Source: a virus (Duplodnaviria > Heunggongvirae > Uroviricota > Caudoviricetes). Taken from it: DNA of 44,185 nt. The position numbers and the translations under genes were made by a program. The notes beneath the pieces are model-generated. The model was not told the origin of the DNA. It worked only from the letters and a program-made list of their open reading frames with translations, and did not search any database. The stretch lies in the IMG/VR virus record IMGVR_UViG_3300045988_018548. One strand, 5' to 3'. Of this stretch, positions 2,711 through 36,722 are shown in pieces; within the stretch, counting starts at the first letter, position 1; every line of letters begins with the position of its first letter.

Positions 2711-2989
2711 TTATTCAACAGCGCCTGTTATTGCGATAAGCCCGGTGTTATCGCGGCGACGATACTTACGAATCACCGTTTTAAGTTCTCCATTGCTACT
2801 CTGATGCCCGAAAGTGACCGGCAACTCTTCTCCTCCTGACATCCCGAACTCAGTGTCCGTCGGTTTGTTCCTCCACCCCTGAATAAACCCATTATTATCG
2901 CGCGTTATGTACCGGTAGTTGTTAGGGAGGGGCAACTCCAGCCCCTCAAAATCAACGGTCACGGTGTAGCTGTTAAAATTCATAGTCAA
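2711..2989 (-). CDS. hypothetical protein
   Basis: 92-aa ORF in same-strand accessory cluster, start overlaps stop of upstream small ORF. Confidence 0.35.
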   Translation of the reverse strand: MTMNFNSYTVTVDFEGLELPLPNNYRYITRDNNGFIQGWRNKPTDTEFGMSGGEELPVTFGHQSSNGELKTVIRKYRRRDNTGLIAITGAVE

Positions 2990-3145
2990 TTACCCCAAAC
3001 TCATTAATGATTTGAGCCTTGTAGAAGTTGCCGTGTTTAGCCAGGTGGTACGCCTGCGCCATAGTCATCTCGCGGTAAGTTGCAGCGCTGTTTTCGAACT
3101 CCATAATCATCAAAGTAACCATATTCTGCCTCTCCTCTCGTTTGT

Positions 3146-3183
3146 GTAAATGAATGGTATCCTATTCTCCCCCAGTGTGCAAG
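3146..3183 (-). promoter_or_regulatory. class II conserved promoter motif (degenerate copy) for leftward small genes
   Basis: Minus-strand reading TTGCACACTGGGGGAGAATAGGATACCATTCATTTACA aligns with motifs at 4199..4232, 26307..26342, 35924..35957; followed by GAGGAGAGG and ATG at 3123. Confidence 0.4.
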
Positions 3184-3338
3184 TAAATTTTATTGGTGTT
3201 TGTATTGTTGCATCTCCTGCAATAGTCGCTTCGATTGTTGCGTTTGGTGAAATAGAACAAAAATGAGAAAAATGATACGCTGCTGTGTAGCAGCGTAAGT
3301 CACTCAGTAAAATCTCAAACTATTGTTACAATATAGCA

Positions 3339-3533
3339 TCACAATTCTGGCGGCTGCGGTAACGGCATCCAGTACACCACGTCGCAGCTACGAATATTTG
3401 AATTGTTCTCCGTGAAACTATCCCAGCAGTAATTTCCATCAAGCCATTTAACTTCTACATCCACGCCATCTGAAACCAGCACATCTTCAAAGTCATCAGG
3501 CATCCGCTCACTACACTTAATCCACTTACCCAT
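3339..3533 (-). CDS. DUF551-like protein
   Basis: 64 aa; C-terminal VVYWMPLPQPPEL matches the W-M-P-L-P-x-P-P hallmark of DUF551; RBS GAGGTGA. Confidence 0.5.
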   Translation of the reverse strand: MGKWIKCSERMPDDFEDVLVSDGVDVEVKWLDGNYCWDSFTENNSNIRSCDVVYWMPLPQPPEL

Positions 3534-3536
3534 ATC

Positions 3537-3704
3537 TCACCTCGGATTCGCAACAGACAACACAACAGACAACACAACAGACAACACACCAGCTTTCCAC
3601 GCCCGCCACGCGAGACGCGTCTTGACGTTCAGGTACTCTTTCTTCGAACCCTTGTTAACGGGCAGACCCTCGACAACGGCCCACCGTTCGAATGCTTCTT
3701 TCAT
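3537..3704 (-). CDS. small hypothetical protein with C-terminal (VLSV)x3 repeat
   Basis: 55-aa ORF not in track (below 60 aa); stop overlaps downstream start; contains the 12-bp tandem repeat. Confidence 0.3.
   Translation of the reverse strand: MKEAFERWAVVEGLPVNKGSKKEYLNVKTRLAWRAWKAGVLSVVLSVVLSVANPR
3552..3587. repeat. 12-bp tandem repeat x3 (aacagacaacac)
   Basis: Three perfect contiguous copies read directly from sequence. Confidence 0.9.
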
Positions 3705-3707
3705 AAC

Positions 3708-3908
3708 TTAGTCCTCCAGAACTTCGCATTCAGAATTTCGGACGAACAAATTCTCGCCGCGATGATTTACAACAAACCCATATTCGCAACTAATCCCTAC
3801 GTCGAACTCATCTCCAACAGAGACGCCAAAGTACGCAAGGCTAACGTCCTGGTATTCCTCAGGGCATGTTTGTTCAACATCAGTTATTCGAATCCTCATT
3901 AACGGCAA
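3708..3908 (-). CDS. hypothetical protein
   Basis: 66-aa ORF, tightly packed in leftward cluster. Confidence 0.35.
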   Translation of the reverse strand: MPLMRIRITDVEQTCPEEYQDVSLAYFGVSVGDEFDVGISCEYGFVVNHRGENLFVRNSECEVLED

Positions 3909-4168
3909 CCTCCCTCAGAGTCGTCGGCACGAGCATCATGATTCGATGCCGTTGTGAATGAGGCTTTCAGTCCGCCATCGAATACCCCTTTGAATTTAAA
4001 ATTGTTGCCAATTAATTCCAGATTATCGCGTAAGGCGAACCCGGGTTTCTTTCTTACCAGGCCCCATACGTCGACTATATTATCCTCGTCATACTCGTTC
4101 TCGTCCTGCAACACTATTACGTACTGCCCACCGCGTTTCGTTTTCACCAACTGACCCTTCTTAAACAT
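3899..4168 (-). CDS. hypothetical protein
   Basis: 89-aa ORF; GAGGAG RBS upstream of ATG 4168; first gene downstream of class II promoter at 4199..4232. Confidence 0.4.
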   Translation of the reverse strand: MFKKGQLVKTKRGGQYVIVLQDENEYDEDNIVDVWGLVRKKPGFALRDNLELIGNNFKFKGVFDGGLKASFTTASNHDARADDSEGGCR

Positions 4169-4198
4169 AACCCCAACTCCTCTGTCTCGTTCCGATAA

Positions 4199-4232
4199 GT
4201 GAATAGTGTCCTATTATATTGGGGTGTGCAAG
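4199..4232 (-). promoter_or_regulatory. class II conserved promoter motif (TTGCAC-N17-CACTAT on minus strand)
   Basis: Minus-strand reading TTGCACACCCCAATATAATAGGACACTATTCAC; near-identical to motifs at 26307 and 35924. Confidence 0.5.
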
Positions 4233-4396
4233 AGAATAGTTACGATGCCGTTGTGATTCTTTCGTTTCTTAAAAGAGTACGCAACGCAGTGGGTGGGCGT
4301 TAGCCCACCCCAGCGGAGTGAAGTACTCTCTACCTTGCTTACGGCAACTATAGAAACTTTTAATTATCAGTGGCTTGGGTATTTAGGCGGGATTAA

Positions 4397-4540
4397 CAAT
4401 AGACTTTGGCCCTTCCGAAAGCGCCAGCGGAACTACACTCAAGTGCCTAATGGCACGCGTTGCGTTCCCTGCCGCTCCGCGGTCGCTTGCGATATCTCAC
4501 AAGCTCAGTGAAGCTTAGCATATTTTTAAGTAAAAGTCAA
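4397..4540 (+). repeat. ~144-bp intergenic element, copy A (paralog of 35715..35857)
   Basis: About 75% identity to copy B by eye, same orientation, with hairpins at matching positions (gtgcc-taat-ggcac; aagct-cagtg-aagctt followed by T-run). Confidence 0.8.
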
Positions 4541-4586
4541 TACCAGTAGCATCTTTTGTATCTTAGTAACTTTGTGTTCGGTTTTG

Positions 4587-4615
4587 GTTGCTTTTACAAA
4601 GTTACCGCCTTATAC
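4587..4615 (+). promoter_or_regulatory. sigma70-like promoter TTGCTT-N17-TATACT for the rightward early operon
   Basis: Hexamers read from sequence with 17-bp spacing, about 30 bp upstream of RBS AGGAG and ATG 4647. Confidence 0.5.
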
Positions 4616-4646
4616 TTCGATACATGTTACACAGGAGAGCGTGAAA

Positions 4647-4816
4647 TGACTATCAATGAAGTTGCAGAATTAATCGGCGTCACCCGCCAGACAATTAATA
4701 ACTGGATTAAGAGTGGAAAGTTTCCTGATTGCAGCGTTAAAGTAATGGGTCGCAGAATGCCGGGTACATTTGACCGTAATAAAGTTGAATCGTGGGTTAA
4801 AGAGAACGTTAAATAA
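4647..4816 (+). CDS. AlpA/excisionase-family HTH DNA-binding protein
   Basis: 56 aa; MTINEVAELIGVTRQTINNWIKSGKFP matches the AlpA-type HTH pattern; RBS AGGAG. Confidence 0.6.
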
Positions 4817-4874
4817 AAGAAAGCCCCGACGCGGTGAACGCCGAGGCCAAATTACTTGCTGAAGGAAATACAAC

Positions 4875-7163
4875 ATGTCCGATGTAATTTTATCCTACTC
4901 GTGGTCTCGTCGCAACGCGCGTGCAGAGAAAAAGGATATAAACGTCAGAACCACCCACACGGCAACACTGGACGACCTGAAAGAGCTAATCAAGCCGCTT
5001 GATGCTGTTCGTGGCGGGATTAACCCGAAGACCGCACCTGGCTATATCACTGCCGCGTGCGACTCGGCACACAGCACCGTAAAAGACCCGGAAACCGGTG
5101 ACTTTAAGCAAGCGCGTAAAGGCTTCTTCTATCGCTGCGATGCGTCTGTAAGCAAATCGTCGCTGGCGTATCTGGACTTCGACAGTGCAACACCGGAAGA
5201 GTATCAGGAAGCGGTGCGCCTGGTTAAGCGCAGCCGCCTGGTTATGTGCCTTTACACCACGGCGTCACATACCGATGAGTCCCCACGCTTTCGGGTCGTC
5301 ATGCCGCTTGCCCGCCCGGTTGAAGGCGGTGACATCATCCGCGTTCGTCATGGATTGCTAGAGCACTTCTTCAAAGGCATGGGGGCGGACCGCAGCGGGT
5401 TTACTCTGTCCCAGCCGATGTACCTGCCACCAGTTGGCTCGCAGGTTATCTGGTCGCGCCGCAACGACCTGATTGACCCGGACGAATTACTGGAAGGCAT
5501 CCCCGCCGTTGACGTTAGCAGCGCATCGGATTACCAGATACCGGAAGAACTGCGCACCGCGTTTACAGATGCGTTTGAAGCACTGGCATTCGAGTACGGC
5601 GGCATCATGACGCCGCGGGGCCTGAAGATGCCCGCTACGCCGGAACACGCAGAAAACTACAGCGACCCGACGCCGCGCCCGGACGACTTCCTGCTGTGTT
5701 TCCCGCGTGAAGGGTACGAAGCGCCGAACGTAACCATGATTCATGACACTGACATCACGGCGACCGAGGGCATGTCACCGAAGGAGGTGTGGAAGTATGC
5801 GTGCGACGCTACCGGGCTGCCGTTCAGTGAAGTTGCAGAGGCTATCGGATGGGGCGCGCGGGAGTCCGTTTCATGCAGCCTCGACGACCTGGAAGATGAT
5901 GACGAGGACTCAGGGGAGGACGAGGACTCAGGGGAGGACGAGCTACCGGAACCGTTAAAGGCTGATTTCGTCGTTGAGGGGTACATGCCGTCTGATTGCA
6001 TATGGGATATCGTCGGGGAGTCCGGTACGTATAAATCCTTCTATACGCTGGGGATGATGTACCTCAGCGCCGCCGGATACCGGTTTGCGGGGGCGGACAC
6101 CCAGCGTTGCCACCATTTCTATATCGACGGGGAGGGTGGCGCGGCTACTCGCACCCGTATCGACGCGCTCGCGGCTAAGTATGGCGGGGAAGGTAAAGAT
6201 TATGTACATGTTATCGATATGGGCGAGGTCGGAAAACTGAAAAGCCTGATTAAGTTAATGCGTGAAACTGCTGGCGACGAGCCAATCGGCATGGTTGCGT
6301 TCGATACTCTCAACCAGACACTGGCTCTGACGATTGATAAGTTCGACGAGAACAGTTCATCGACGGCAATCGGTATGGGTAAGGTTATCGCCATCCTGAA
6401 AGAAGTACGTGACGCGACTAAAGCTGCGGTGGGCGTCGTCCACCATACACCGAAGGGCGGAAAGAAAGCCCGTGGCAGCGGGGCGCTGTATGCGGGTGTC
6501 GACGTGGAACTGACAATCGAACGTGCAACCGACCGCCAGATAAACGTATACCACTCTAAGTTTAAGCACGGCCCTCAACAGAAAACGGTTGGCATGGTAC
6601 TTGAGTCAGTACAGTTCCGTGAAGCACCGCCACCGAAAGAGTATCGCGCTGTCGAGTTCCTCGGCAGCACCGAGGGGTACGGCACAATCGTAAACCTCGA
6701 CCTGCCCGAGCCACACAAGGCGCTTGTATTGATGCCGTGGGGCTTCGAACCGTTCAAGACTGACGAGGAGAAAGAACGGGAAGAAGGGCTGCCGAAAGAA
6801 GGTAAAGAAAACGTACGTAAAACCGTAGAGAACGCTGTCAACAGCTCGGAGGCCACGATACTGGCAGCGTTTGAACTGGCGGAAGGAACCTACAACGGCA
6901 ACGAAGGCATCACAGTCGCAGCAGCTAATAAGCTCGCACAGTCAGACCCCAACGCAAAGGCGTTTAACTCCAAAGAAGCCATAGAACGCGGGAAGATTAA
7001 GAAAATGGTTGAGGCTGGGTATCTTGTTCCGGGGACTGACGAAAACAATCAGATAATCCCTGGCCGTTACAGGCTGAACACCCGGATAACTGATAACAAG
7101 ATTCCGAAGACAATATACGAACCGAATGAGATGCTGATAGTGACAGAGGAGGATTTGGAATGA
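4875..7163 (+). CDS. bifunctional primase-helicase (AEP-type primase N-terminus, RecA-like P-loop helicase C-terminus)
   Basis: 762 aa; N-terminal LDFD and TTASH motifs; Walker A GESGTYKS; Walker B-like MVAFDTL; acidic linker between domains. Confidence 0.8.
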   Translation: MSDVILSYSWSRRNARAEKKDINVRTTHTATLDDLKELIKPLDAVRGGINPKTAPGYITAACDSAHSTVKDPETGDFKQARKGFFYRCDASVSKSSLAYLDFDSATPEEYQEAVRLVKRSRLVMCLYTTASHTDESPRFRVVMPLARPVEGGDIIRVRHGLLEHFFKGMGADRSGFTLSQPMYLPPVGSQVIWSRRNDLIDPDELLEGIPAVDVSSASDYQIPEELRTAFTDAFEALAFEYGGIMTPRGLKMPATPEHAENYSDPTPRPDDFLLCFPREGYEAPNVTMIHDTDITATEGMSPKEVWKYACDATGLPFSEVAEAIGWGARESVSCSLDDLEDDDEDSGEDEDSGEDELPEPLKADFVVEGYMPSDCIWDIVGESGTYKSFYTLGMMYLSAAGYRFAGADTQRCHHFYIDGEGGAATRTRIDALAAKYGGEGKDYVHVIDMGEVGKLKSLIKLMRETAGDEPIGMVAFDTLNQTLALTIDKFDENSSSTAIGMGKVIAILKEVRDATKAAVGVVHHTPKGGKKARGSGALYAGVDVELTIERATDRQINVYHSKFKHGPQQKTVGMVLESVQFREAPPPKEYRAVEFLGSTEGYGTIVNLDLPEPHKALVLMPWGFEPFKTDEEKEREEGLPKEGKENVRKTVENAVNSSEATILAAFELAEGTYNGNEGITVAAANKLAQSDPNAKAFNSKEAIERGKIKKMVEAGYLVPGTDENNQIIPGRYRLNTRITDNKIPKTIYEPNEMLIVTEEDLE
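5901..5942. repeat. 18-bp tandem duplication (gacgaggactcaggggag x2.3) in primase-helicase acidic linker
   Basis: Perfect contiguous copies encoding DEDSGE DEDSGE. Confidence 0.85.
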
Positions 7164-7724: not shown

Positions 7725-7797
7725 TTGATATGTGAATAGTACCATATTAATTATTTTAGAAAAGCCCATTGACATGTGAATAGTTCACTATTATAGT
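7725..7797 (+). promoter_or_regulatory. early promoter TTGACA-N17-TATAGT (7769..7797) with two TGTGAATAGT operator-like sites
   Basis: Consensus -35 and near-consensus -10 at 17-bp spacing; dyad AATAGT-TC-ACTATT in spacer; second TGTGAATAGT copy 44 bp upstream. Confidence 0.6.
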
Positions 7798-10365: not shown

Positions 10366-10394
10366 TTGACACCTGAATAGTTAGCTATTATAGT
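10366..10394 (+). promoter_or_regulatory. promoter TTGACA-N17-TATAGT with AATAG-N4-CTATT dyad in spacer
   Basis: Hexamers and spacing read directly; same architecture as 7769..7797 and 14210..14238. Confidence 0.6.
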
Positions 10395-23087: not shown

Positions 23088-25424
23088 TTAATACCCCGGC
23101 TGGTTTCGTGTAGCCCGGCGGGACTTGGAGATTGCACTGTTGCTGTCTTGTAACGCCGCCGATACTGTTTCACTGATGATAACACGTAACCGCCCTTCGT
23201 CGTCACGCTCTGTAACGGCGGAATCAACTCGTCCGGTGGTGTTGTTGACGATTGTCACGCTGTCACCGCCTGACTTGTTGCCGTTCTCGCCCATAATCTG
23301 GCGCATCTGTTCTGCGGTACGGACGCGTGACGCACCTGCCGGCATAATAACTTCGGGCTTGTTACGTTCTGCAATGGTGGATAGCTGCCCGGCAGCTAAG
23401 TTACCACCCTGTTCACGGGCCGAACGAATCTTGCTGATGTTAGCGAGACCTGCCGCTACCGCTGTAGCTGCTGCTATCGGCCCAAGTATCCAACCAACAA
23501 AAGGAATCGCGGACGCAGATTTATAAGCCTCGATGGCGGATGTGTATGTGGCGATGGTGGCCTGGGCGATAGCAAACGCTTTATAAGCGGTAGACGCTTC
23601 GCCAAGCGACGATTTAATATTATCCGCCATCATTCCGAAAGCGTTACCGGTAGCGTTGGCACGTTTCAAGGCATACTGGTCGTTTATAGCATTAACCGCA
23701 GCCTGGTACTGCTCCTCGTTAATAAGGTTCTGTTCGCGATATCGGTCTGCAACGTCAAGTTTTTGTTGTTCCTGAATCTCCAGAAGCTCAAGCTCTGCGG
23801 CATTCTGACCCATAATCTGAGCCATGAAGTCTTCACCTTTCTGGTTCTTCTCCTGTCGTTCTTTCTCCCGCTTGGCGAGTTCTTCCTGGCGAGCGGTGTC
23901 CGCCTCCAACATAATCTGAGTTTTAGCGTTCTCGTATTGCTGGTCGCTAAGAAGCTGATTGCCGTAAAACTCCTGTAGCTTGGTTAGCTGCTGTTCCTGG
24001 TTGGCTTCTATTTTCTGGAATACGTCATCATTGAGATGAATCGACTGGTAGTAGAAATCCTCAGCGGCTTTCTTCTGGCGCTCGAACGCATCTGCGGCTT
24101 TCTTAGCGGCTTTTGCACCTGCGCTATCATCTTCGGATCCGCCACCAGTACCGGTTACCTTAAATTTACTAAGACCTTCTTCCTTAGCGGCTTCTTTGTC
24201 GATGTCATATGCCGCGCGTTTAAGCGCGACAATATTTTGCTGAGCCTCCACCTGTTCGCGGAAACTTTTACGGGTCAGGTCCGCAACATCACGCTGAGTA
24301 TCCAGTGCCATCCCTAACTGGAAGTTAATGTTTTTTGCTACGTCTACGGATTCCCCTGGTGTGAAGGCAGCTTTCACCAACCGGCCAGCGTCCTGTGCCC
24401 CTTTAACCATATCTTCAAAGAATCGCTCCATCGCGGTAAATTCTTCCGCTATGAAATCGAGTGCATCGGCGGCTGATTCCGCGATGGTTGTCGCCGTTTG
24501 TTCACCGCTATCGGTGATACTTTTACTGCTAAAATCCCAAAGTTCATTCAGCCCGTTTATCGCGTCGCCTACGAAACCAAATGCCGCGTCGAACGACATC
24601 TCTATCGCGCTGCCCACTTCTGATGCGATGTCACCCCACATACGCATCTCGGCGGCGAGTTCACCGGATGCCACCTGTGCGTTAAGTTCCTGGATTAAAT
24701 CATCGATGTACCGGATAGGTTCCGCAAGAGCACCAACATCAAGGCTGGTAGCCAGTGTCATTTTTAACTGCGACCAGGAATCGCTGGCACTGGCGATGGC
24801 CCCGTTAAGTGTGTTGGCCTGGTCCGCCATAGCCCCCGCGAAGTTTACGTTACCAATGTTGAGCAGGTATTGCTCGATGTCGGCAGCGCTCTTCTTAACT
24901 ACCGTAGTGGTGCCCTGGAATGTAAATTCAACATCGTCTTTGTTTTGCTTGGCCTTGATGCCGAATTCTTTAAGGCGCTCAAATTCAAATGTACTGGCGT
25001 CCGCAACGGCCTCAATCATCTGATTAAGGTCTTTACCCATAGCAGCGGCAGTGTTGCCATAGGAGCGCAACGCTTCTTCTGACGGTGTAAGGCCGAGAGC
25101 CACCAGTTTACGGAATCCCTCTACCGCCTGTTCAAGACCATACGGGGTGTCGCGCGCGAAGTCTTGCAGGATGCTTAACGCCTGTCTTGCACCCTGCGTG
25201 CTTCCGGTTAGTGTTTTCAGGCTGGCGGACATCTTGTCCAGTTGCCGTTGGGAGTCTACCAGTTCCTGTGCGGCCTTGTACGCGGTAGCGGCGACGATGG
25301 AAGCGAGGCCCGCTACCGCAGCTCCGGCTACCTTTGCAGACTTGGAAAGGTTATCAAGACGGTCTGATGTAGCTTTCGCGCCTTGCTCTGATACTTTTAC
25401 AACTAAACTAGCTACATCAGCCAT
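23088..25424 (-). CDS. tail tape measure protein
   Basis: 778 aa, Ala/Gln/Glu-rich and predominantly helical, after chaperone pair. Confidence 0.8.
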   Translation of the reverse strand: MADVASLVVKVSEQGAKATSDRLDNLSKSAKVAGAAVAGLASIVAATAYKAAQELVDSQRQLDKMSASLKTLTGSTQGARQALSILQDFARDTPYGLEQAVEGFRKLVALGLTPSEEALRSYGNTAAAMGKDLNQMIEAVADASTFEFERLKEFGIKAKQNKDDVEFTFQGTTTVVKKSAADIEQYLLNIGNVNFAGAMADQANTLNGAIASASDSWSQLKMTLATSLDVGALAEPIRYIDDLIQELNAQVASGELAAEMRMWGDIASEVGSAIEMSFDAAFGFVGDAINGLNELWDFSSKSITDSGEQTATTIAESAADALDFIAEEFTAMERFFEDMVKGAQDAGRLVKAAFTPGESVDVAKNINFQLGMALDTQRDVADLTRKSFREQVEAQQNIVALKRAAYDIDKEAAKEEGLSKFKVTGTGGGSEDDSAGAKAAKKAADAFERQKKAAEDFYYQSIHLNDDVFQKIEANQEQQLTKLQEFYGNQLLSDQQYENAKTQIMLEADTARQEELAKREKERQEKNQKGEDFMAQIMGQNAAELELLEIQEQQKLDVADRYREQNLINEEQYQAAVNAINDQYALKRANATGNAFGMMADNIKSSLGEASTAYKAFAIAQATIATYTSAIEAYKSASAIPFVGWILGPIAAATAVAAGLANISKIRSAREQGGNLAAGQLSTIAERNKPEVIMPAGASRVRTAEQMRQIMGENGNKSGGDSVTIVNNTTGRVDSAVTERDDEGRLRVIISETVSAALQDSNSAISKSRRATRNQPGY

Positions 25425-25776
25425 CGTTTCTACCCTCGAAAATAGCGTCTAAGCTCATGATGATGTCAGATTCGAACATGCCTATATTCTGGCCTGAAAC
25501 GGTGCTGTATGCCACTAAATCCGACCATCTTAACTGTTCGCGCGGGTACATCTTGATGCCATCATCGTCCACTCGGCGGGTGAATTTGATTTCCCTGTAC
25601 TTCTCGAAGGTGGTTAATAGCTCAGGGGGGCATTCCGGCCCTGTGTCCTGCGTTGCTTCCGGCGCGTCTTGCATAACCCCCATAGCAATTAGCGCGGCTT
25701 TATGCCCGTCGGCGATACTGTCAAACTCCCGCCGTTTGTGGCGGGTTATGAAGTTCCAACGGGCAAACTGGAGCAA
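25417..25776 (-). CDS. tail assembly chaperone, frameshift-extension (T) segment
   Basis: No ATG start (track uses TTG); in -1 frame relative to the upstream chaperone ORF. Confidence 0.5.
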   Translation of the reverse strand: MLQFARWNFITRHKRREFDSIADGHKAALIAMGVMQDAPEATQDTGPECPPELLTTFEKYREIKFTRRVDDDGIKMYPREQLRWSDLVAYSTVSGQNIGMFESDIIMSLDAIFEGRNDG

Positions 25777-25781
25777 CGCGT

Positions 25782-26198
25782 CTACTTTTCCTGCAATTGG
25801 TGAAGCTGTTCATTGTGGAAAACAACAACGTGTTCAGCGAGTCGTTTATATTGTGAGAAAAGAGTATTCAGGTTCTCTTTATTAAATTCATCGTCGAGAC
25901 TCCAACCGTTAACCAGTTCAAGCGCTAACTGGCGGTTAAGGTCCGTTGCGGCGTCTTCCATCTTGATGTTGTATTCCGAGAAATCTTTCAGTTCCTCGCA
26001 TTTATCGCGAAGCGGTTTCAATTTACCTAATGCCGCGCGGTACGCAAGTGTAAACGCCCTCATAGCTTTAACAGCAACGTCTGCCTCCGGTGAAACAACG
26101 TTCAGCCACTCCCCTGAATCGGTGCCGTCTTTCAGTGGTATCGGCATACGGGCGCCTTTTTCTGCCTCAGCTTCGTAATAAAAATCAGAAAGTTTCAT
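25782..26198 (-). CDS. tail assembly chaperone (G-like)
   Basis: 138-aa acidic ORF directly upstream of tape measure, canonical position. Confidence 0.5.
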   Translation of the reverse strand: MKLSDFYYEAEAEKGARMPIPLKDGTDSGEWLNVVSPEADVAVKAMRAFTLAYRAALGKLKPLRDKCEELKDFSEYNIKMEDAATDLNRQLALELVNGWSLDDEFNKENLNTLFSQYKRLAEHVVVFHNEQLHQLQEK

Positions 26199-26306: not shown

Positions 26307-26342
26307 TTGCGCACCCCAACATAATAGGATACTATTCACTTA
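26307..26342 (+). promoter_or_regulatory. class II conserved promoter motif (TTGCGC-N17-TACTAT)
   Basis: TTGCGCACCCCAACATAATAGGATACTATTCACTTA, about 35 bp upstream of ATG 26377. Confidence 0.55.
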
Positions 26343-26376
26343 CACCAACAATGTTAACTCAAACAGGAGCTACACC

Positions 26377-26568
26377 ATGACAGGTATTACTATGTTCTTC
26401 TTAATCATTATCGTTTTAGTTTATTTTATCCCGTTTTTAGTGGCCCATATGCGCGGACATAAAGCGAAACTGGCGATATTCATGGCTAATCTGTTTCTCG
26501 GCTGGGTTCTGCTGCCGTGGGTATTTATTTTAATCTGGGCTTGCAACTCGAATGTCAAAGAGAAGTGA
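26377..26568 (+). CDS. small membrane protein (two predicted TM helices)
   Basis: 63 aa; MFFLIIIVLVYFIPFLVA and LFLGWVLLPWVFILIWA; RBS AGGAG. Confidence 0.45.
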   Translation: MTGITMFFLIIIVLVYFIPFLVAHMRGHKAKLAIFMANLFLGWVLLPWVFILIWACNSNVKEK

Positions 26569-26606
26569 GCTAGTATAGGACAAATCCTAAACACGAGGAA
26601 GTAAGC

Positions 26607-27737
26607 ATGGCCCGGAAGAAAATAACCGACGAACAGTTACAGGAAGAATTGAACGCCGGAACAAAGATTATCGACATATCCCGTAAATACGGCATCTCAG
26701 ACCGAGTTATTCGTATCCGTAAAGCGAAGCTGGCGAAGAAAGGCGTAGGTCACGGTCGTGACGTTAGCCATCTTGTCCCGGACGGCTACAAAATTAAAGG
26801 AACGTCGTCACTGGTGGACGAGTTCGGCAACACTAAGTTGCAATGGGTTAAGACAGACACCGACGCCGAACGTCAGGTCGAGTTAATGAAAGCCGTGATC
26901 GAAGGAATGAAGTCGGAGATTACGCCAGTTGCGCCGGTTAAAGCGACTCGAGCCAAACGCGATGATAAACTACTCAATCTGTACACGGTATCTGATTTCC
27001 ATCTTGGTATGCTGGCCTGGGCTGACGAGAGCGGCGACGACTGGGATATGAAGATTGCGGAAGACCTGTTCTCCCGATGGTTCGATGCGGCGTTTCAGAA
27101 AGCACCAGATGCAGGAACTGGGGTTATTAACCTGCTGGGTGACTTCGCGCACTTCGATAGTCTGGATGCGGTTACGCCAGCGAGTGGTCATGTTCTTGAT
27201 GCGGACACTCGTTATCAGAAACTGGTCCGATACATGATTCGTATGGTACGCCGTGTTGTTGACATGGCGCTGGTTAAGCATAAATCTGTTCGCTTGCTTA
27301 TCGTGCAAGGGAACCACGACGAAAGCGGAATGATTTGGTTAGCTGAGATGTTTAGTACGCTGTACGACAATGAGCCGCGTGTGTTCGTCGATACGTCGCC
27401 GGATGTTTACAAGATGGTCCAACACGGCAAAACTACGCTGTTCTTTCACCACGGGCATAAGGCGCGATTCGACGCTATCGAACCGGTAATGATTGCCAAG
27501 TTCCGTAAAGCGTTCGGCGAGAGTGTTTACAGCTACGCCCACGTAGGCCATCTGCACCACCAGAAGATTGTAGAAAGCCGTAACATGATTGTTGAGCAAC
27601 ACCGCACCTTAGCGGCTAAAGACGCCTACGCCTCGCGCGGCGGATGGATGTCGGGCCGTAGTGCAAATGTAATTACTTATAGCGCCGAATATGGCGAGGT
27701 CGCACGTTTAACTATTTCACCGGAGATGCTGGGATGA
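26607..27737 (+). CDS. HTH domain fused to calcineurin-like metallophosphoesterase
   Basis: 376 aa; N-terminal HTH-like IIDISRKYGISDRVIRIRK; phosphoesterase motifs DFH, GDFAH, GNHDE, HHGH, GHLHH in canonical order. Confidence 0.7.
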   Translation: MARKKITDEQLQEELNAGTKIIDISRKYGISDRVIRIRKAKLAKKGVGHGRDVSHLVPDGYKIKGTSSLVDEFGNTKLQWVKTDTDAERQVELMKAVIEGMKSEITPVAPVKATRAKRDDKLLNLYTVSDFHLGMLAWADESGDDWDMKIAEDLFSRWFDAAFQKAPDAGTGVINLLGDFAHFDSLDAVTPASGHVLDADTRYQKLVRYMIRMVRRVVDMALVKHKSVRLLIVQGNHDESGMIWLAEMFSTLYDNEPRVFVDTSPDVYKMVQHGKTTLFFHHGHKARFDAIEPVMIAKFRKAFGESVYSYAHVGHLHHQKIVESRNMIVEQHRTLAAKDAYASRGGWMSGRSANVITYSAEYGEVARLTISPEMLG

Positions 27738-27934
27738 AAGATATGTATGAATGTACCGATGTGAGTCCGTACGCGGAGAAAAATGGATTCGAAGTAGGTG
27801 CGGTATATGAAGGGGTCACCCTAGAGAACGGCGACGTAAGAATGTATTCGCCTAAATATCGCAGCTTCTTTGAAATAGGCAACATTAACGAGTCAGGCAT
27901 AGCCCGATTTAAGAGAGTTAACAGTGACAAATAA
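27734..27934 (+). CDS. hypothetical protein
   Basis: 66-aa ORF, ATGA overlap with upstream gene. Confidence 0.35.
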   Translation: MKDMYECTDVSPYAEKNGFEVGAVYEGVTLENGDVRMYSPKYRSFFEIGNINESGIARFKRVNSDK

Positions 27935-28154
27935 ATACAACCGCACAATGACAAACATTCACGGCAGCACTATGACGGTTGACGTTTACGACGTGCTACG
28001 CGCCTTCGACATACGGGACCCAGCGTTACAGCACGCATTGAAGAAGCTATTGTGTATGGGCCTTCGCGGACACAAAGACACAGGAACAGACTTAGCGGAA
28101 GCAATTGAAAGCCTGGAGAAGTTACGGGAGTACAGGGGTAACATTGATGAGTAA
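27924..28154 (+). CDS. hypothetical protein
   Basis: 76-aa ORF overlapping upstream gene. Confidence 0.35.
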   Translation: MTNKYNRTMTNIHGSTMTVDVYDVLRAFDIRDPALQHALKKLLCMGLRGHKDTGTDLAEAIESLEKLREYRGNIDE

Positions 28155-28157
28155 GAA

Positions 28158-28177
28158 AAGGCCCCGAAAGGGGTCTT
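28158..28177 (+). terminator. stem-loop aaggcccc-gaaa-ggggtctt
   Basis: GC-rich hairpin after stop at 28154; weak T-tract. Confidence 0.45.
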
Positions 28178-28190
28178 ATCGCAACAGGAG

Positions 28191-28685
28191 ATGATTATGG
28201 ACTGGAATGAATTTTTCATATACGACTTAATTTCAGGAAGGATATTTAACAGAGTAACCCGGTCCGGGAGGGCTAAGGCTGGAGAGGAAGCGGGTACTGT
28301 CCAGCGAGACGGATATAGAAGGATATTTTTCCGAGGTAAATGGCACGCGGCGCACCGTATAGCTTGGGACTTAAACAATCCTAACGATAAGCTAACCTCG
28401 TCAGATCAAATAGGCCATCTAGACCATGACCGAATAAACAATAGACCGCTTAACTTAGCTAAAAAGTCCAATGCGGAAAACCATAAAAATATGTCAAAAC
28501 AGCGTAATAATAAATCAGGAGTAACCGGGGTTTACTGGAACGCGAAAGAAAGGTTGTGGTACGCACAGATATTCAACAATAACGTAAAAACACACATCGG
28601 GTGCTTTAAAACGCTACTAGATGCAGTTGCCGCGAGGAGAGTTGCTGAAAGAGATTTAGGGTTCCACGAGAACCACGGTAAATAG
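28191..28685 (+). CDS. HNH homing-type endonuclease with C-terminal AP2 DNA-binding domain
   Basis: 164 aa; HNH core AHRIAWDL ... IGHLDHDRINNRPLNLA ... AENHKN; AP2-like SGVTGVYWNAKERLWYAQI; likely start at second ATG (28197). Confidence 0.8.
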   Translation: MIMDWNEFFIYDLISGRIFNRVTRSGRAKAGEEAGTVQRDGYRRIFFRGKWHAAHRIAWDLNNPNDKLTSSDQIGHLDHDRINNRPLNLAKKSNAENHKNMSKQRNNKSGVTGVYWNAKERLWYAQIFNNNVKTHIGCFKTLLDAVAARRVAERDLGFHENHGK

Positions 28686-28686
28686 T

Positions 28687-28710
28687 AAGGCCCCTTTCGG
28701 GGCCTTTTCC
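28687..28710. terminator. bidirectional terminator aaggcccc-tttc-ggggcctt + TT
   Basis: Perfect 8-bp GC stem between convergent genes. Confidence 0.65.
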
Positions 28711-29883
28711 TTACGCGTAGCTAATACGCTGTATTACAATAGAAGATTGATATTGATTGCCTGTGGACTGTCCTTCTATGCTTTGCGTAATTGATTCCGG
28801 GCCAGATATTTCTGGCGTAACCGCCGTAAGCTCTGCGCGTTTCAGGCTGAAAGACATAGCCCCGTTTACCCCCGCCAGAATAGAGTTAATCTCTACCTGC
28901 TGTTCGTTGATAAACTTCTGAATCATCGCCATGTCGTACAGCTTACCAGAGATGGAGAATGTGTTAGCTGCGCGGCCACGTTCCACGAACGCAACACTAC
29001 TGTTGCCGAGTTCGAACTGCGCGGAAGCACCGTTGTCGTTGGTGATGGTCAGAGTATCGCAACGCAACGGCGTAGAACCGTCGAACACAGACACATCTAC
29101 GGATGAGAACGGCTCATCGGTAAACGTCACCTGAGAGAAATCAGAACCTGCTGGCAGTGCAGAAAGAATTTCCTGACTCAGACCGATGAACGGGAAGCTG
29201 CCTGTCACCATCGCGTTTACGGCCTGTTCAATGGTGAAACCGGAGATTTCCACGCCTTTGGTCAGCATGTACGCGTCATGGTTCCTGCACTGTCCTTTGA
29301 ACCATGTCAGGATGGAGAACGTCTTACATGCGTTACCGGTTTCCAATTTATCGCCTGTTTTAGCGTCGGTGGTTACAGTCTCTGCTGTCAGCGTGTGCTG
29401 GATACCCGCACCCGTAACTACAAGAGCAGAAACCGCGGTCACGATAAACGGTTTTGCGTTGTCGCCGGTTAAGTCGGTGAATGCAATCAGGTCGCCAACC
29501 TCTACACCGTCAGTAATGAAGCTACCGGCAGCGCGGGTGAATGTTTTACCTGCTGGAGCGACCGTAATTTCAGCACCCGTAATCTCTACCCCGTCCTGCC
29601 ACGTAGAAGTCATAGCACCCGCAAGGAAATCATCCTGGCTACGTGAGCTAAGTTCGATGGCGTACTCCCCGCTAACCTGTTTGTTACCGGTGCGGATGGA
29701 TGTGGTTTCTCTGCTGCCGTCGAGTTCGTTGGAAGTCAGCGCATCGCGGGTTACCGCAGGAACACCGCCAGTGTTACGCAACGGCGACCAGACCGGGTTA
29801 GTCGGTGTTACGCCAGGGGTCACTTCCGCCACATAGAATTGCGCGGTATTCGCGCCCTTAAAAGGAGTTGTAGCCATATTCAC
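28711..29883 (-). CDS. major tail protein (by position and size)
   Basis: 390 aa, last structural gene before the chaperone/tape-measure block. Confidence 0.45.
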   Translation of the reverse strand: MNMATTPFKGANTAQFYVAEVTPGVTPTNPVWSPLRNTGGVPAVTRDALTSNELDGSRETTSIRTGNKQVSGEYAIELSSRSQDDFLAGAMTSTWQDGVEITGAEITVAPAGKTFTRAAGSFITDGVEVGDLIAFTDLTGDNAKPFIVTAVSALVVTGAGIQHTLTAETVTTDAKTGDKLETGNACKTFSILTWFKGQCRNHDAYMLTKGVEISGFTIEQAVNAMVTGSFPFIGLSQEILSALPAGSDFSQVTFTDEPFSSVDVSVFDGSTPLRCDTLTITNDNGASAQFELGNSSVAFVERGRAANTFSISGKLYDMAMIQKFINEQQVEINSILAGVNGAMSFSLKRAELTAVTPEISGPESITQSIEGQSTGNQYQSSIVIQRISYA

Positions 29884-32271: not shown

Positions 32272-32511
32272 TTATTCCTCTGACTTACGGCGACGACGCT
32301 TAGTACCACCGCCGTTGTTGTGCGCTTCTTCGTTGTCCGGTTGAGTCGCAACCAGTTCATCCGCTTCTACCACACCGCGAACAGGCATCACCTGACCATC
32401 AACACCGCGAACAGGCATCACCTGACCATCAACACCGCGAACAGGCATCACCTGACCATCAACAACGTCAACGTGGGTGTATTTTTCGCGGATTACATAA
32501 TTATCTACCAT
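32272..32511 (-). CDS. small protein with three DGQVMPVRGV repeats
   Basis: 79 aa; contains the perfect 30-bp tandem triplication; basic C-terminus. Confidence 0.4.
   Translation of the reverse strand: MVDNYVIREKYTHVDVVDGQVMPVRGVDGQVMPVRGVDGQVMPVRGVVEADELVATQPDNEEAHNNGGGTKRRRRKSEE
32371..32460. repeat. 30-bp tandem repeat x3 (aacaccgcgaacaggcatcacctgaccatc)
   Basis: Copies 2 and 3 identical, copy 1 differs at one base; in-frame. Confidence 0.9.
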
Positions 32512-35108: not shown

Positions 35109-35372
35109 CTATTCCAGAATATTCCTCACGTAATCCTGCAACATGAACACTTTCAGTCGCAGTTGCCGTGCGCATTCGGCGTTCTGAACGTCAATAGCCA
35201 AATCCTCGTCTGCGTCGCTACTTGGCGGGGCCAGTTTGCACGGCGGCTGCATCATCGTCGTATCCGGGTATGGAATTGGCGTTTGCGACGGCGCGGGACT
35301 TGAGCTGCACGCGCTCATGGTCAAAAGTGCACACGCTGCGGCCAGGCGTTTTAATGTACTTAACGACTTCAC
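35109..35372 (-). CDS. o-spanin (Rz1-like outer-membrane lipoprotein)
   Basis: 87 aa; signal peptide with lipobox-like LLTMSAC, proline-rich mature region; overlaps 3' end of i-spanin in another frame. Confidence 0.6.
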   Translation of the reverse strand: MKSLSTLKRLAAACALLTMSACSSSPAPSQTPIPYPDTTMMQPPCKLAPPSSDADEDLAIDVQNAECARQLRLKVFMLQDYVRNILE

Positions 35373-35604
35373 GGGTAATCACCTCCGATTTCGTCTTGCC
35401 TTCGTTGTCCGCGGCTGCGGCCTTTGATTCGTCCTGCTGCTGCCGTTGTGTTTTCTTAGCTAACTCAGCCTGTGCTTTCTGCTGTTGCTGCGAAACGAGA
35501 TTCGCCCGGCCTTCGTTCCAGCCGGCGCGATACTGGTAGATGCCGTGTGCGTAAGCCAGGATGATGAAACATGCCCCCGCTACGACAGTCGCTTTAAGAT
35601 TCAT
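35218..35604 (-). CDS. i-spanin (Rz-like)
   Basis: 128 aa; N-terminal TM helix VVAGACFIILAYAHGIY then Gln/Lys/Ala-rich coiled coil. Confidence 0.65.
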   Translation of the reverse strand: MNLKATVVAGACFIILAYAHGIYQYRAGWNEGRANLVSQQQQKAQAELAKKTQRQQQDESKAAAADNEGKTKSEVITREVVKYIKTPGRSVCTFDHERVQLKSRAVANANSIPGYDDDAAAVQTGPAK

Positions 35605-35923: not shown

Positions 35924-35957
35924 TTGCAGACACCAATATAATAGGGTACTATTCACT
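35924..35957 (+). promoter_or_regulatory. class II conserved promoter motif (TTGCAG-N17-TACTAT)
   Basis: TTGCAGACACCAATATAATAGGGTACTATTCACTCA, about 25 bp upstream of ATG 35982. Confidence 0.55.
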
Positions 35958-35981
35958 CACACCAACAAGAGGCGAGAAGAA

Positions 35982-36233
35982 ATGATTACGAAACCAGCAA
36001 AACATCGTGTACAGGACCTTGGTTCCTTTCTTAAAAAAGAGTATGAACAGGCTGAATTACGCGGCGATATTTCGGCGTATATTGAGCTTCAGCAGATGCA
36101 ACTGGACGCGCAAGAAGACGGGGATATGTCTCTATCCGCCGCGCTCGGTAGAAGTATGCGCCAGATTCGTGAAAAGTATAACCAAAACGTCTGGAATAAA
36201 GAGATTAACTTAACCCAAGAGACTGGGTATTGA
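35982..36233 (+). CDS. small hydrophilic protein, lone rightward gene inside late region
   Basis: 83 aa with own promoter and terminator; RBS AGAGG. Confidence 0.45.
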   Translation: MITKPAKHRVQDLGSFLKKEYEQAELRGDISAYIELQQMQLDAQEDGDMSLSAALGRSMRQIREKYNQNVWNKEINLTQETGY

Positions 36234-36260: not shown

Positions 36261-36722
36261 TCATTCTGGTTTAGTGACCTTCGCCGCCTTGCTCACCGCC
36301 TCTACCCCATCGGCATCAGTAACTTTAACGAAGTATTCACCGACCGCATTAACCGTCAGTGACGAGGCCTCTTCCGGGGCGTTTACAACTTCCTTACCGT
36401 CTTTGTACCAGGTCAGCGCGTACGGGGCTTTACCCGCCTTAACTTCAACAGTGATAATTGCGCTGCCGTCCACCAGTTCGGTGCCTTGCGGTTGTACGGA
36501 GAAATACACATCGCCAGCATCGGCCAGATACGGAATTTCATAAAGCATACCTGCCGCGGAGAGTGCGATACCGGTTTTATCCGCGTACGGCATCTCGTCT
36601 ACAGGTGTACCTAGTACACTTTCATCTTCAACGTAGGTTACGTTCTCGCCGGAGCCAGACACACGAGCGTACTGGACTACGCGACGCGACGGCACATCAG
36701 TTACTTTGAAAAAGCCCATCAT
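36261..36722 (-). CDS. Ig-like (Big_2-type) domain protein
   Basis: 153 aa; C-terminal ITVEVKAGKAPYALTWYKDGKEV ... GEYFVKVTDADG; start overlaps stop of head morphogenesis gene (TAATG). Confidence 0.5.
   Translation of the reverse strand: MMGFFKVTDVPSRRVVQYARVSGSGENVTYVEDESVLGTPVDEMPYADKTGIALSAAGMLYEIPYLADAGDVYFSVQPQGTELVDGSAIITVEVKAGKAPYALTWYKDGKEVVNAPEEASSLTVNAVGEYFVKVTDADGVEAVSKAAKVTKPE

Follow-up and report, generated by a model that had tools for sequence, protein, structure and literature searches.

A candidate rightward operon in the tail gene cluster of Guernseyvirinae phages, with an apparently old core and a fast-turnover 3′ slot

We analyzed a rightward gene block lying between the tail tube and tail assembly chaperone genes of a 44,185-nucleotide (nt) viral sequence (IMG/VR record IMGVR_UViG_3300045988_018548; “the window” hereafter, i.e., this whole stretch of DNA). 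The most probable interpretation, in which we place good but not full confidence, is that the block forms a rightward operon with transcription of its own, fixed in the tail cluster of Guernseyvirinae and made of an old core and a 3′ cargo slot with fast gene turnover. The core encodes an Imm-family protein, a metallophosphoesterase (MPE) and a small protein from open reading frame 4 (ORF4), and the cargo in this window is ORF3 and an HNH endonuclease gene. A 5.5-kb query centred on the block matched 483 phage records, the closest being Escherichia phage vB-Eco-KMB36 (OR525703; 95.5% nt identity, 100% coverage of the query) and the second-best fBC-Eco01 (97.0% identity over 90% of the query, flanks 97% identical). 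Since both of these are kagunaviruses, the window is best assigned to an E. coli Kagunavirus (Guernseyvirinae), i.e., a virulent siphovirus from a well-sampled group. The block is already annotated in hundreds of deposited Guernseyvirinae genomes, this copy is 95–100% identical to known ones, and the genes of KMB36 follow the same order throughout, HNH included.

The block consists of five plus-strand ORFs (positions 26377–28685) of 63, 376, 66, 76 and 164 amino acids (aa), enclosed by minus-strand tail genes and each preceded by a Shine-Dalgarno-like sequence. The Imm-family gene (26377–26568) is followed by the MPE gene (26607–27737), ORF3 (27734–27934), ORF4 (27924–28154, GTG start) and the HNH gene (28191–28685); the MPE stop and the ORF3 start share an ATGA, and ORF3 and ORF4 overlap by 11 nt. 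To the left lies a tail assembly chaperone gene (25782–26198, minus strand; PF08748, with Phage_TAC_4 at E 2.5e-8 and Phage_TAC_18 at E 1e-18), so annotated in relatives, and to the right the tail tube gene (28711–29883, minus strand; PF18906, E 2.4e-35). An earlier reading made from the letters alone (the sequence-only reading) had described just such a rightward block between tail tube and chaperone genes, with two small proteins among its products, and these ORFs and flank matches bear it out. GC skew flips sign across the block, as expected from the switch of coding strand.

Several lines of evidence point to an old block. The same layout, i.e., leftward chaperone gene, rightward Imm, MPE and further genes, then leftward tube gene, is found in KMB36, fBC-Eco01, 22664BS2, XY1, ORH_001, HSE2, fFiEco03 and the Jerseyvirus SETP3, and Imm, MPE and ORF4 sit at this site in all eight other kagunaviruses inspected as well as in SETP3, thereby covering two genera; across the subfamily, ORF4 belongs to the core in most members. 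SETP3 gp20–gp23 run from a leftward chaperone gene through a promoter to Imm, a “DNA repair exonuclease”, a 76-aa protein and cargo, ending at a terminator before the leftward tube gene; the difference from the window lies in the cargo, where Ant takes the place of ORF3 and HNH, and in the MPE, only 55% identical. The other SETP3 proteins are 70% (Imm), 68% (tube) and 43% (chaperone) identical to their counterparts here. Because the arrangement is shared at 55% MPE and 68% tube identity, the block appears to predate the split between Kagunavirus and Jerseyvirus. In the more distant outgroups Vibrio phage 1.133.O (tube 33% identical) and Pseudomonas phage PaMx74 (29%), the tube gene, two small genes and the tape measure gene are adjacent and co-directional, which argues for an ancient insertion or relocation, kept since. 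That the block breaks a leftward virion module, as the sequence-only reading had it, is thus upheld by the intact tube–chaperone–tape measure order in these outgroups.

Record counts are consistent with this picture. The tube gene has 695 phage records (495 at ≥60% identity), compared to 772 for ORF4 (397 at ≥60% identity) and 354 for Imm, a short and partly masked query whose matches are nearly all from Guernseyvirinae; among Salmonella-phage records, MPE has 373 and tube 359. With counts for Imm, MPE and ORF4 of the same order as that for the tube gene, the block seems to be widely kept. The core (26377–28154) is also typical in composition: among segments of equal size, its tetranucleotide distance ranks at the 65th percentile, and its GC content is 0.485 against 0.506 for the window.

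ORF4 provides a separate indication of age. It belongs to phrog_2452 (E 1.5e-36), a family of unknown function, and is 88–89% identical to SETP3 gp21 at the aa level yet only 56% identical at third codon positions. This combination of high protein identity and low third-position identity indicates strong long-term purifying selection rather than recent exchange. ORF4 homologues span many phage families, including Drexlerviridae and phages of Acinetobacter, Vibrio and Aeromonas, and several longer PHROG profiles, among them one for an ATPase, align with ORF4 over their C-terminal ~70 positions; ORF4 may represent a small domain that is mobile. A conserved pairing of MPE with an ORF4-type gene outside Guernseyvirinae was considered and rejected, as no ORF4 match lies beside the MPE gene in J8-65, 16-3, SO-1 or tiwna.

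The part of the block downstream of the MPE gene shows a different pattern. The HNH gene matches phrog_99 (E 1e-47), and Pfam HNH_3 covers residues 53–98 of its product at 22.2 bits, 2.6 below the cutoff. Its allele is found at ≥95% identity in 5 of 50,697 phage records and falls below 60% in all others, and the composition of the HNH segment is atypical (GC 0.446, top 3.8% of tetranucleotide distances). Translation probably begins at the ATG at 28197, which lies 6 nt beyond an AGGAG. The sequence-only reading had named the product an HNH-AP2 endonuclease; the HNH part holds, while the C-terminal domain may be AP2-like, its best PDB sequence match being an AP2 factor at E 0.028, with no AP2 match in Pfam at E ≤ 5. 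ORF3, for its part, has no match in Pfam, PHROG, NCBIfam or PADLOC (the last two of which gave zero matches for any of the five block proteins) and is limited to 26 records, every one of them an E. coli kagunavirus with ≥92% identity. That ORF3 and ORF4 might be remnants of phosphatase and kinase genes present in relatives was ruled out (E 1.0 and 3.3).

Relatives carry a variety of genes in this interval. In fBC-Eco01, which lacks HNH, a 52-aa ORF replaces the HNH gene and the hairpin before it, and the remainder of the block is unchanged. Both fFiEco03 and ORH_001 have a different, 210-aa HNH gene on the opposite strand at the same place (minus strand, 3184–3816 of their loci), and HSE2 has a 156-aa HNH gene (39% identical; 2721–3191 of its locus) between MPE and ORF4, i.e., in the position of ORF3. 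This position is occupied in 22664BS2 by a phosphatase/kinase pair; a polynucleotide phosphatase and a P-loop kinase fill the slot in this phage and many others, with the phosphatase allele present at ≥80% identity in 57 records. The occupant in SETP3 is Ant (Rha/KilAC). The MPE-to-tube interval is a homing endonuclease hot spot: across different kagunaviruses, it holds no fewer than three HNH genes that are unrelated or related only distantly. The window’s HNH gene fits a free-standing homing endonuclease in a recombination-prone slot, i.e., a late passenger rather than the vehicle of the island. It resembles I-HmuI and the T4 Mob/Seg-type enzymes in its HNH family match, its intergenic position between conserved genes behind a hairpin, its sporadic presence among near-identical genomes and the other endonucleases at the same locus in relatives; it differs in replacing a 52-aa ORF instead of being a pure insertion, and homing would here be deduced from the genes. 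In XY1 (3107–4840 of its locus), a foreign, full-length but divergent MPE allele (60% identical) precedes what is left of the resident one, namely its last 130 codons (residues 247–376), 100% identical to the window’s MPE; this is the scar of an allelic replacement by illegitimate recombination.

Next, we evaluated the signals that would make the block a transcription unit of its own. A putative rightward promoter (26307–26335, plus strand) consists of TTGCGC (26307–26312), a 17-nt spacer and TACTAT (26330–26335), read toward Imm; the first base of its −35 element, 26307, is also where the sequence-only reading had started the block. A palindrome, AATAG-GATA-CTATT (26323–26336), overlaps the spacer and the −10 element. 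The authors of the fBC-Eco01 genome paper reported a recurrent “phage promoter” motif, and PHIRE predicts a promoter at the equivalent site (PMC9825357). The 18-mer motif from that work has seven sites in the window compared to 0.01 expected (3151–3168, 4200–4217, 7733–7750, 7777–7794, 10374–10391, 26321–26338 and 35938–35955). A tighter subset of four, hereafter class A, lies upstream of the genes starting at 3122 and 4168 (minus strand) and at 26377 and 35982 (plus strand), with the consensus cTTGCACACCCCAAT-ATAATAGGATACTATTCA-CTTACACCAAC followed by a ribosome-binding site and start codon within 25–40 nt. At two others, 7777 and 10374, the palindrome falls in the spacer of a near-consensus sigma-70 promoter (TTGACA-N17-TATAGT). 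The island promoter arrangement is kept in seven kagunavirus loci; in SETP3, the palindrome recurs upstream of Imm, there with TTGCAT-N17-TATTAT around it. Probably, a phage-encoded repressor or activator binds the AATAG-N4-CTATT palindrome.

The island promoter is thus credible at the sequence level. Since the same promoter family is used elsewhere in the genome, it does not appear to be private to the block, as the sequence-only reading had proposed; that part of its claim falls, while a promoter and a terminator belonging to the block do find candidates, namely the class A promoter and a hairpin described below. We also considered the 18-mer as a leftward promoter for the chaperone gene and rejected it: transcription from the 3151 site would then run into a convergent gene at its 3′ end, and for each of the four class A sites a ribosome-binding site and ATG lie 25–40 nt away on the opposite side. 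A distinct leftward promoter-like site, TTAACA-N17-TAGTAT (26329–26357, minus strand; 9 of 12 matches in a consensus scan), shares the palindrome with the island promoter and could, speculatively, restart transcription of the chaperone, tape measure and distal tail genes after the tube-gene terminator.

At the other end of the block, a hairpin directly after the HNH gene (28686–28709; GGCCCC-TTTC-GGGGCC, then UUUUCCUU) folds at −15.4 kcal/mol on the plus strand and −16.8 kcal/mol on the minus strand. KMB36 and fBC-Eco01 both retain it; the fBC-Eco01 annotation marks a terminator here on both strands, and that of SETP3 likewise marks a terminator. We take this hairpin to end the operon; the tube gene runs toward it from the other side, so that it may act in both directions. 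A second hairpin follows ORF4 (28155–28178, plus strand; GGCCCC-GAAA-GGGGTC, −15.6 kcal/mol, z −4.4); with its weak U-tract, it might terminate transcription only in part or serve as a stem that stabilises the transcript. The two hairpins form a 24-nt inverted repeat, 96% complementary, that brackets the HNH gene, and only 12 nt separate the upstream hairpin from the annotated HNH start. Nested between two hairpin copies, with a gap too short for a promoter, the HNH gene would be expressed only by read-through. The loop of the upstream hairpin (28159–28176) reads GAAA here and TTTC in KMB36 (4657–4676 of its locus) within identical flanks, i.e., the stem-loop is flipped and carries one additional C-to-T change, so that the two hairpins around HNH repeat each other in inverted orientation in the window but in direct orientation in KMB36.

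The MPE is the largest product of the core. Its PHROG match is phrog_704 (“DNA repair exonuclease”; E 1.7e-165), and its family counts 2040 phage records (1955 near full-length) from many phage families, and 4648 clusters at 50% identity. As a plain homologue search gave only sequences of ≥97% identity, we aligned 96 representatives at 32–49% identity from a representative library. Across these 96 homologues, D130, H132, G178, D179, N236, H237, H282, G314 and H317 are invariant and H182, D238 and H315 nearly so, and all five metal-binding motifs of the calcineurin-like superfamily (DxH, GD, GNH, H and GxH) are intact. Because these motif residues are invariant or nearly so, the MPE should be active. 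Its motif spelling (DFHLG, GDFAH, GNHD, GHLHH) is of the Mre11/SbcD type.

An AlphaFold model built on the 96-sequence alignment (predicted local distance difference test score, pLDDT, 93.3; predicted template modelling score, pTM, 0.80) has an N-terminal three-helix domain, a beta-hairpin with a helix, and the phosphoesterase sandwich; a single-sequence model was discarded (pLDDT 42). The closest folds are PolD-DP1, SbcD and Mre11, and the top Foldseek match is the cyclic-nucleotide phosphodiesterase Rv0805. No sequence similarity of the MPE to Mre11/SbcD or PolD DP1 was detectable by phmmer or hmmsearch against the PDB. Of the helix-turn-helix (HTH)–metallophosphoesterase fusion seen in the sequence-only reading, the phosphoesterase is borne out by phrog_704 and its motifs, while for the HTH there are weak sequence matches (GerE, E 0.05; HTH_Tnp_1, E 0.12) and the predicted three-helix domain. 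The protein differs from Mre11/SbcD and PolD DP1 in having this N-terminal HTH and no identified Mre11 capping domain, and from Mre11-Rad50 and SbcCD in that no partner SMC-like ATPase is encoded beside it in the island. In the part of the window’s ORFs scanned against Pfam, no protein resembled a Rad50/SbcC-like ATPase or a PolD catalytic subunit; the large replication-module proteins are an AAA_25 primase/helicase-like protein, a DUF2800 PD-(D/E)XK protein, an Enc34-type single-stranded DNA-binding protein, Pol A and an SNF2 helicase.

In other phage families, MPE homologues sit in regions of DNA metabolism, in nin-type regions or close to lysis genes. In Drexlerviridae, the homologue follows helicase, VRR-NUC and methylase genes and precedes a holin gene; in the podovirus J8-65, it adjoins exonuclease, endonuclease and kinase-phosphatase genes; in mEp044, it lies between O and a helicase gene; and on a metagenomic contig, between a primase/helicase gene and antiterminator Q. 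From model and context, the MPE is probably a DNA nuclease or end-processing enzyme working without Rad50. Our literature search found no functional study of the island or of the MPE family, and no family member has a solved structure. The only phage MPE for which a role has been published is a different protein, mycobacteriophage gp48, which degrades host DNA with a reported counter-defence role (PMC12287305).

The first gene of the block encodes a member of Imm_superinfect (PF14373, E 8.7e-14; 51.6 bits against a cutoff of 27.9; phrog_1039, E 1.4e-23) with two hydrophobic segments, at residues ~4–23 and ~32–54, split by HMRGHKAK. The family match above cutoff and the hydropathy confirm the two-transmembrane protein of the sequence-only reading, and the superinfection function suggested there gains a superinfection-immunity homologue. 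PHROG places the family in the category “moron, auxiliary metabolic gene and host takeover”. The protein resembles T4 Imm in family membership, small size and two hydrophobic segments, and T4-like phages give weak tblastn matches to it; it differs in sitting in a siphovirus with another DNA-ejection apparatus. T4 Imm is ~83 aa long, compared to 63 aa for the protein of the block. A longer, 109-aa version of the ORF (start 26239) was rejected: the promoter would fall inside it, and a ribosome-binding site precedes 26377.

Given these elements, we propose that a host-type promoter, TTGCGC-N17-TACTAT, with a palindromic, operator-like element would drive the three core genes, the same promoter type serving the phage’s small-gene clusters at ~3.1 kb and ~4.2 kb. 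By homology, Imm would be a two-transmembrane inner-membrane protein blocking DNA entry of superinfecting phages; an HTH-tethered dinuclear MPE (DxHLG, GDxxH, GNHD, GHxH) would cut or trim DNA ends in phage DNA metabolism; and ORF4 would be a strongly constrained third core protein. Transcription would stop at the G+C-rich hairpin abutting the convergent tube gene. Cargo genes would be interchangeable between MPE and terminator, here ORF3 and HNH, and the HNH enzyme would spread by cutting HNH-less relatives in mixed infections. In a transcriptome of the kagunavirus K1B4, the Imm homologue is transcribed and peaks in a temporal class other than that of the capsid and tail genes, although these data are coarse (PMC12645636). 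Several points weigh against this operon model. The gene functions are assigned from sequence and fold only, and promoter activity and timing, exclusion by Imm, the MPE substrate and homing by HNH are likewise inferred. The universality of the block in Guernseyvirinae rests on nine inspected genomes and count comparisons. A generic promoter and terminator scan was not above chance (3 promoter-like sites compared to 4.3 expected, both hairpins missed) and did not report the proposed island promoter, which has 8 of 12 consensus matches. Two calcineurin-like phosphoesterase Pfam models match the MPE below their curated cutoffs. Finally, the low-resolution K1B4 transcriptome calls Imm “late”, as opposed to the early timing suggested by promoter sharing (PMC12645636).

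How the block came to lie in the tail cluster can be framed in two further ways. The sequence-only reading took it for a horizontally acquired moron cassette, i.e., in the classical form, a five-gene unit of dispensable fitness genes recently acquired with or by the homing nuclease, and much about it invites that view: the opposite orientation, the promoter and terminator, the tube–chaperone order uninterrupted in outgroups, the PHROG category of Imm, and the sporadic HNH and ORF3. The block indeed shares with phage morons (the Juhala/Hendrix concept, from the HK97/HK022 tail region) the form of an independent unit with its own promoter and terminator, a superinfection-immunity gene, and an insertion between genes that are adjacent in more distant relatives. 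Conservation in syntenic position, joined to an essential function, was what the sequence-only reading had named as speaking against a cassette, and the first half of this is what the comparison with relatives returned: the core is syntenic in two genera, at 55–70% identity for Imm and MPE and 88–89% for ORF4, whose synonymous sites have diverged under a conserved protein. The compositional check proposed alongside found a typical core and only the HNH segment atypical. Likewise, the promoter is common to other operons of the genome, and relatives without HNH retain the rest of the block. Taken as a whole, then, the block has the promoter and terminator of a moron and neither its sporadic presence nor its deviant composition; it is fixed across the subfamily and multigenic, with a probable DNA-metabolism enzyme. 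Because the phage is virulent, the block cannot be expressed from a prophage, and only its 3′ cargo behaves like a moron. Recent acquisition therefore survives for ORF3 and HNH, is largely refuted for Imm, MPE and ORF4, and is very unlikely for the block in its entirety. More plausible, though still on the unlikely side, is that an ancestral internal rearrangement moved an early or replication unit for DNA metabolism into the tail cluster with nothing foreign involved, an account that differs from the favoured operon model only in origin. In Drexlerviridae, Dhillonvirus, Autographiviridae and lambdoid phages, homologues of MPE and ORF4 are encoded in replication, nin or lysis-proximal regions; the promoter class is that of the leftward small-gene clusters at 3122 and 4168, and the composition matches that of the remaining genome. 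At such an age, however, direct evidence of the event is lost, and foreign DNA acquired long ago, once ameliorated and placed under a recruited promoter, would leave the same picture. Outside Guernseyvirinae and T-even-like phages, Imm homologues are rare, such that Imm may differ in origin from MPE. Foreign acquisition and internal relocation are thus indistinguishable here, with a slight lean to relocation, as the promoter class is common to other units of the phage and MPE lies in replication modules elsewhere.

A further question is the activity around which the block is organised. Rather than serving DNA metabolism, the MPE might form a counter-defence hub with phosphatase and kinase cargo, removing cyclic or oligonucleotide messengers, or the 2′,3′-cyclic and 3′-phosphate ends left by defence nucleases. 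The Foldseek match to Rv0805 fits this idea, as do the polynucleotide phosphatase and kinase genes adjoining the MPE gene in 22664BS2, XY1 and the unrelated podovirus J8-65; another phage MPE is reported to counter defence via DNA degradation (PMC12287305), and the neighbouring slot turns over fast, as often seen at anti-defence loci. We regard this hub as doubtful. An equally tentative suggestion is that the MPE is a Rad50-independent, DNA-tethered Mre11-like enzyme, acting either in an end-repair/counter-defence hub, for which polynucleotide phosphatase/kinase, Ant and homing nucleases may be interchangeable cargo, or as an autoregulator binding AATAG-N4-CTATT.

The favoured operon model bears on the use of these phages. 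Kagunaviruses and jerseyviruses serve as therapeutic or biocontrol phages, and a conserved Imm could affect mutual exclusion in cocktails, while the 3′ slot, which naturally tolerates insertions and comes with a promoter and a terminator, could serve engineering. The widespread HTH-MPE family is very large, and one biochemical study would annotate thousands of phage genes.

Nothing in the window matched Rfam. The neighbouring tail genes include a second chaperone ORF (25417–25776, minus strand), so annotated in relatives, and the tape measure gene (23088–25424, minus strand); in fFiEco03, the two chaperone ORFs (25417–26198, minus strand) are annotated as a programmed-frameshift pair of the G/GT type. 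Elsewhere in the leftward late genes, a second insertion of opposite orientation (35925–36233) consists of a lone 83-aa plus-strand ORF (35982–36233) with a class A promoter ahead and no significant family match, flanked by minus-strand genes at 35218–35604 and 36261–36722. The window also contains perfect or near-perfect tandem repeats: a 30-nt unit repeated 3.1 times (32372–32464, 100% match), a 12-nt unit repeated 3.5 times (3551–3592) that gives VLSV repeats inside a small leftward ORF, and an 18-nt unit repeated 2.3 times (5901–5942) inside the gene for a 762-aa primase/helicase-like protein.

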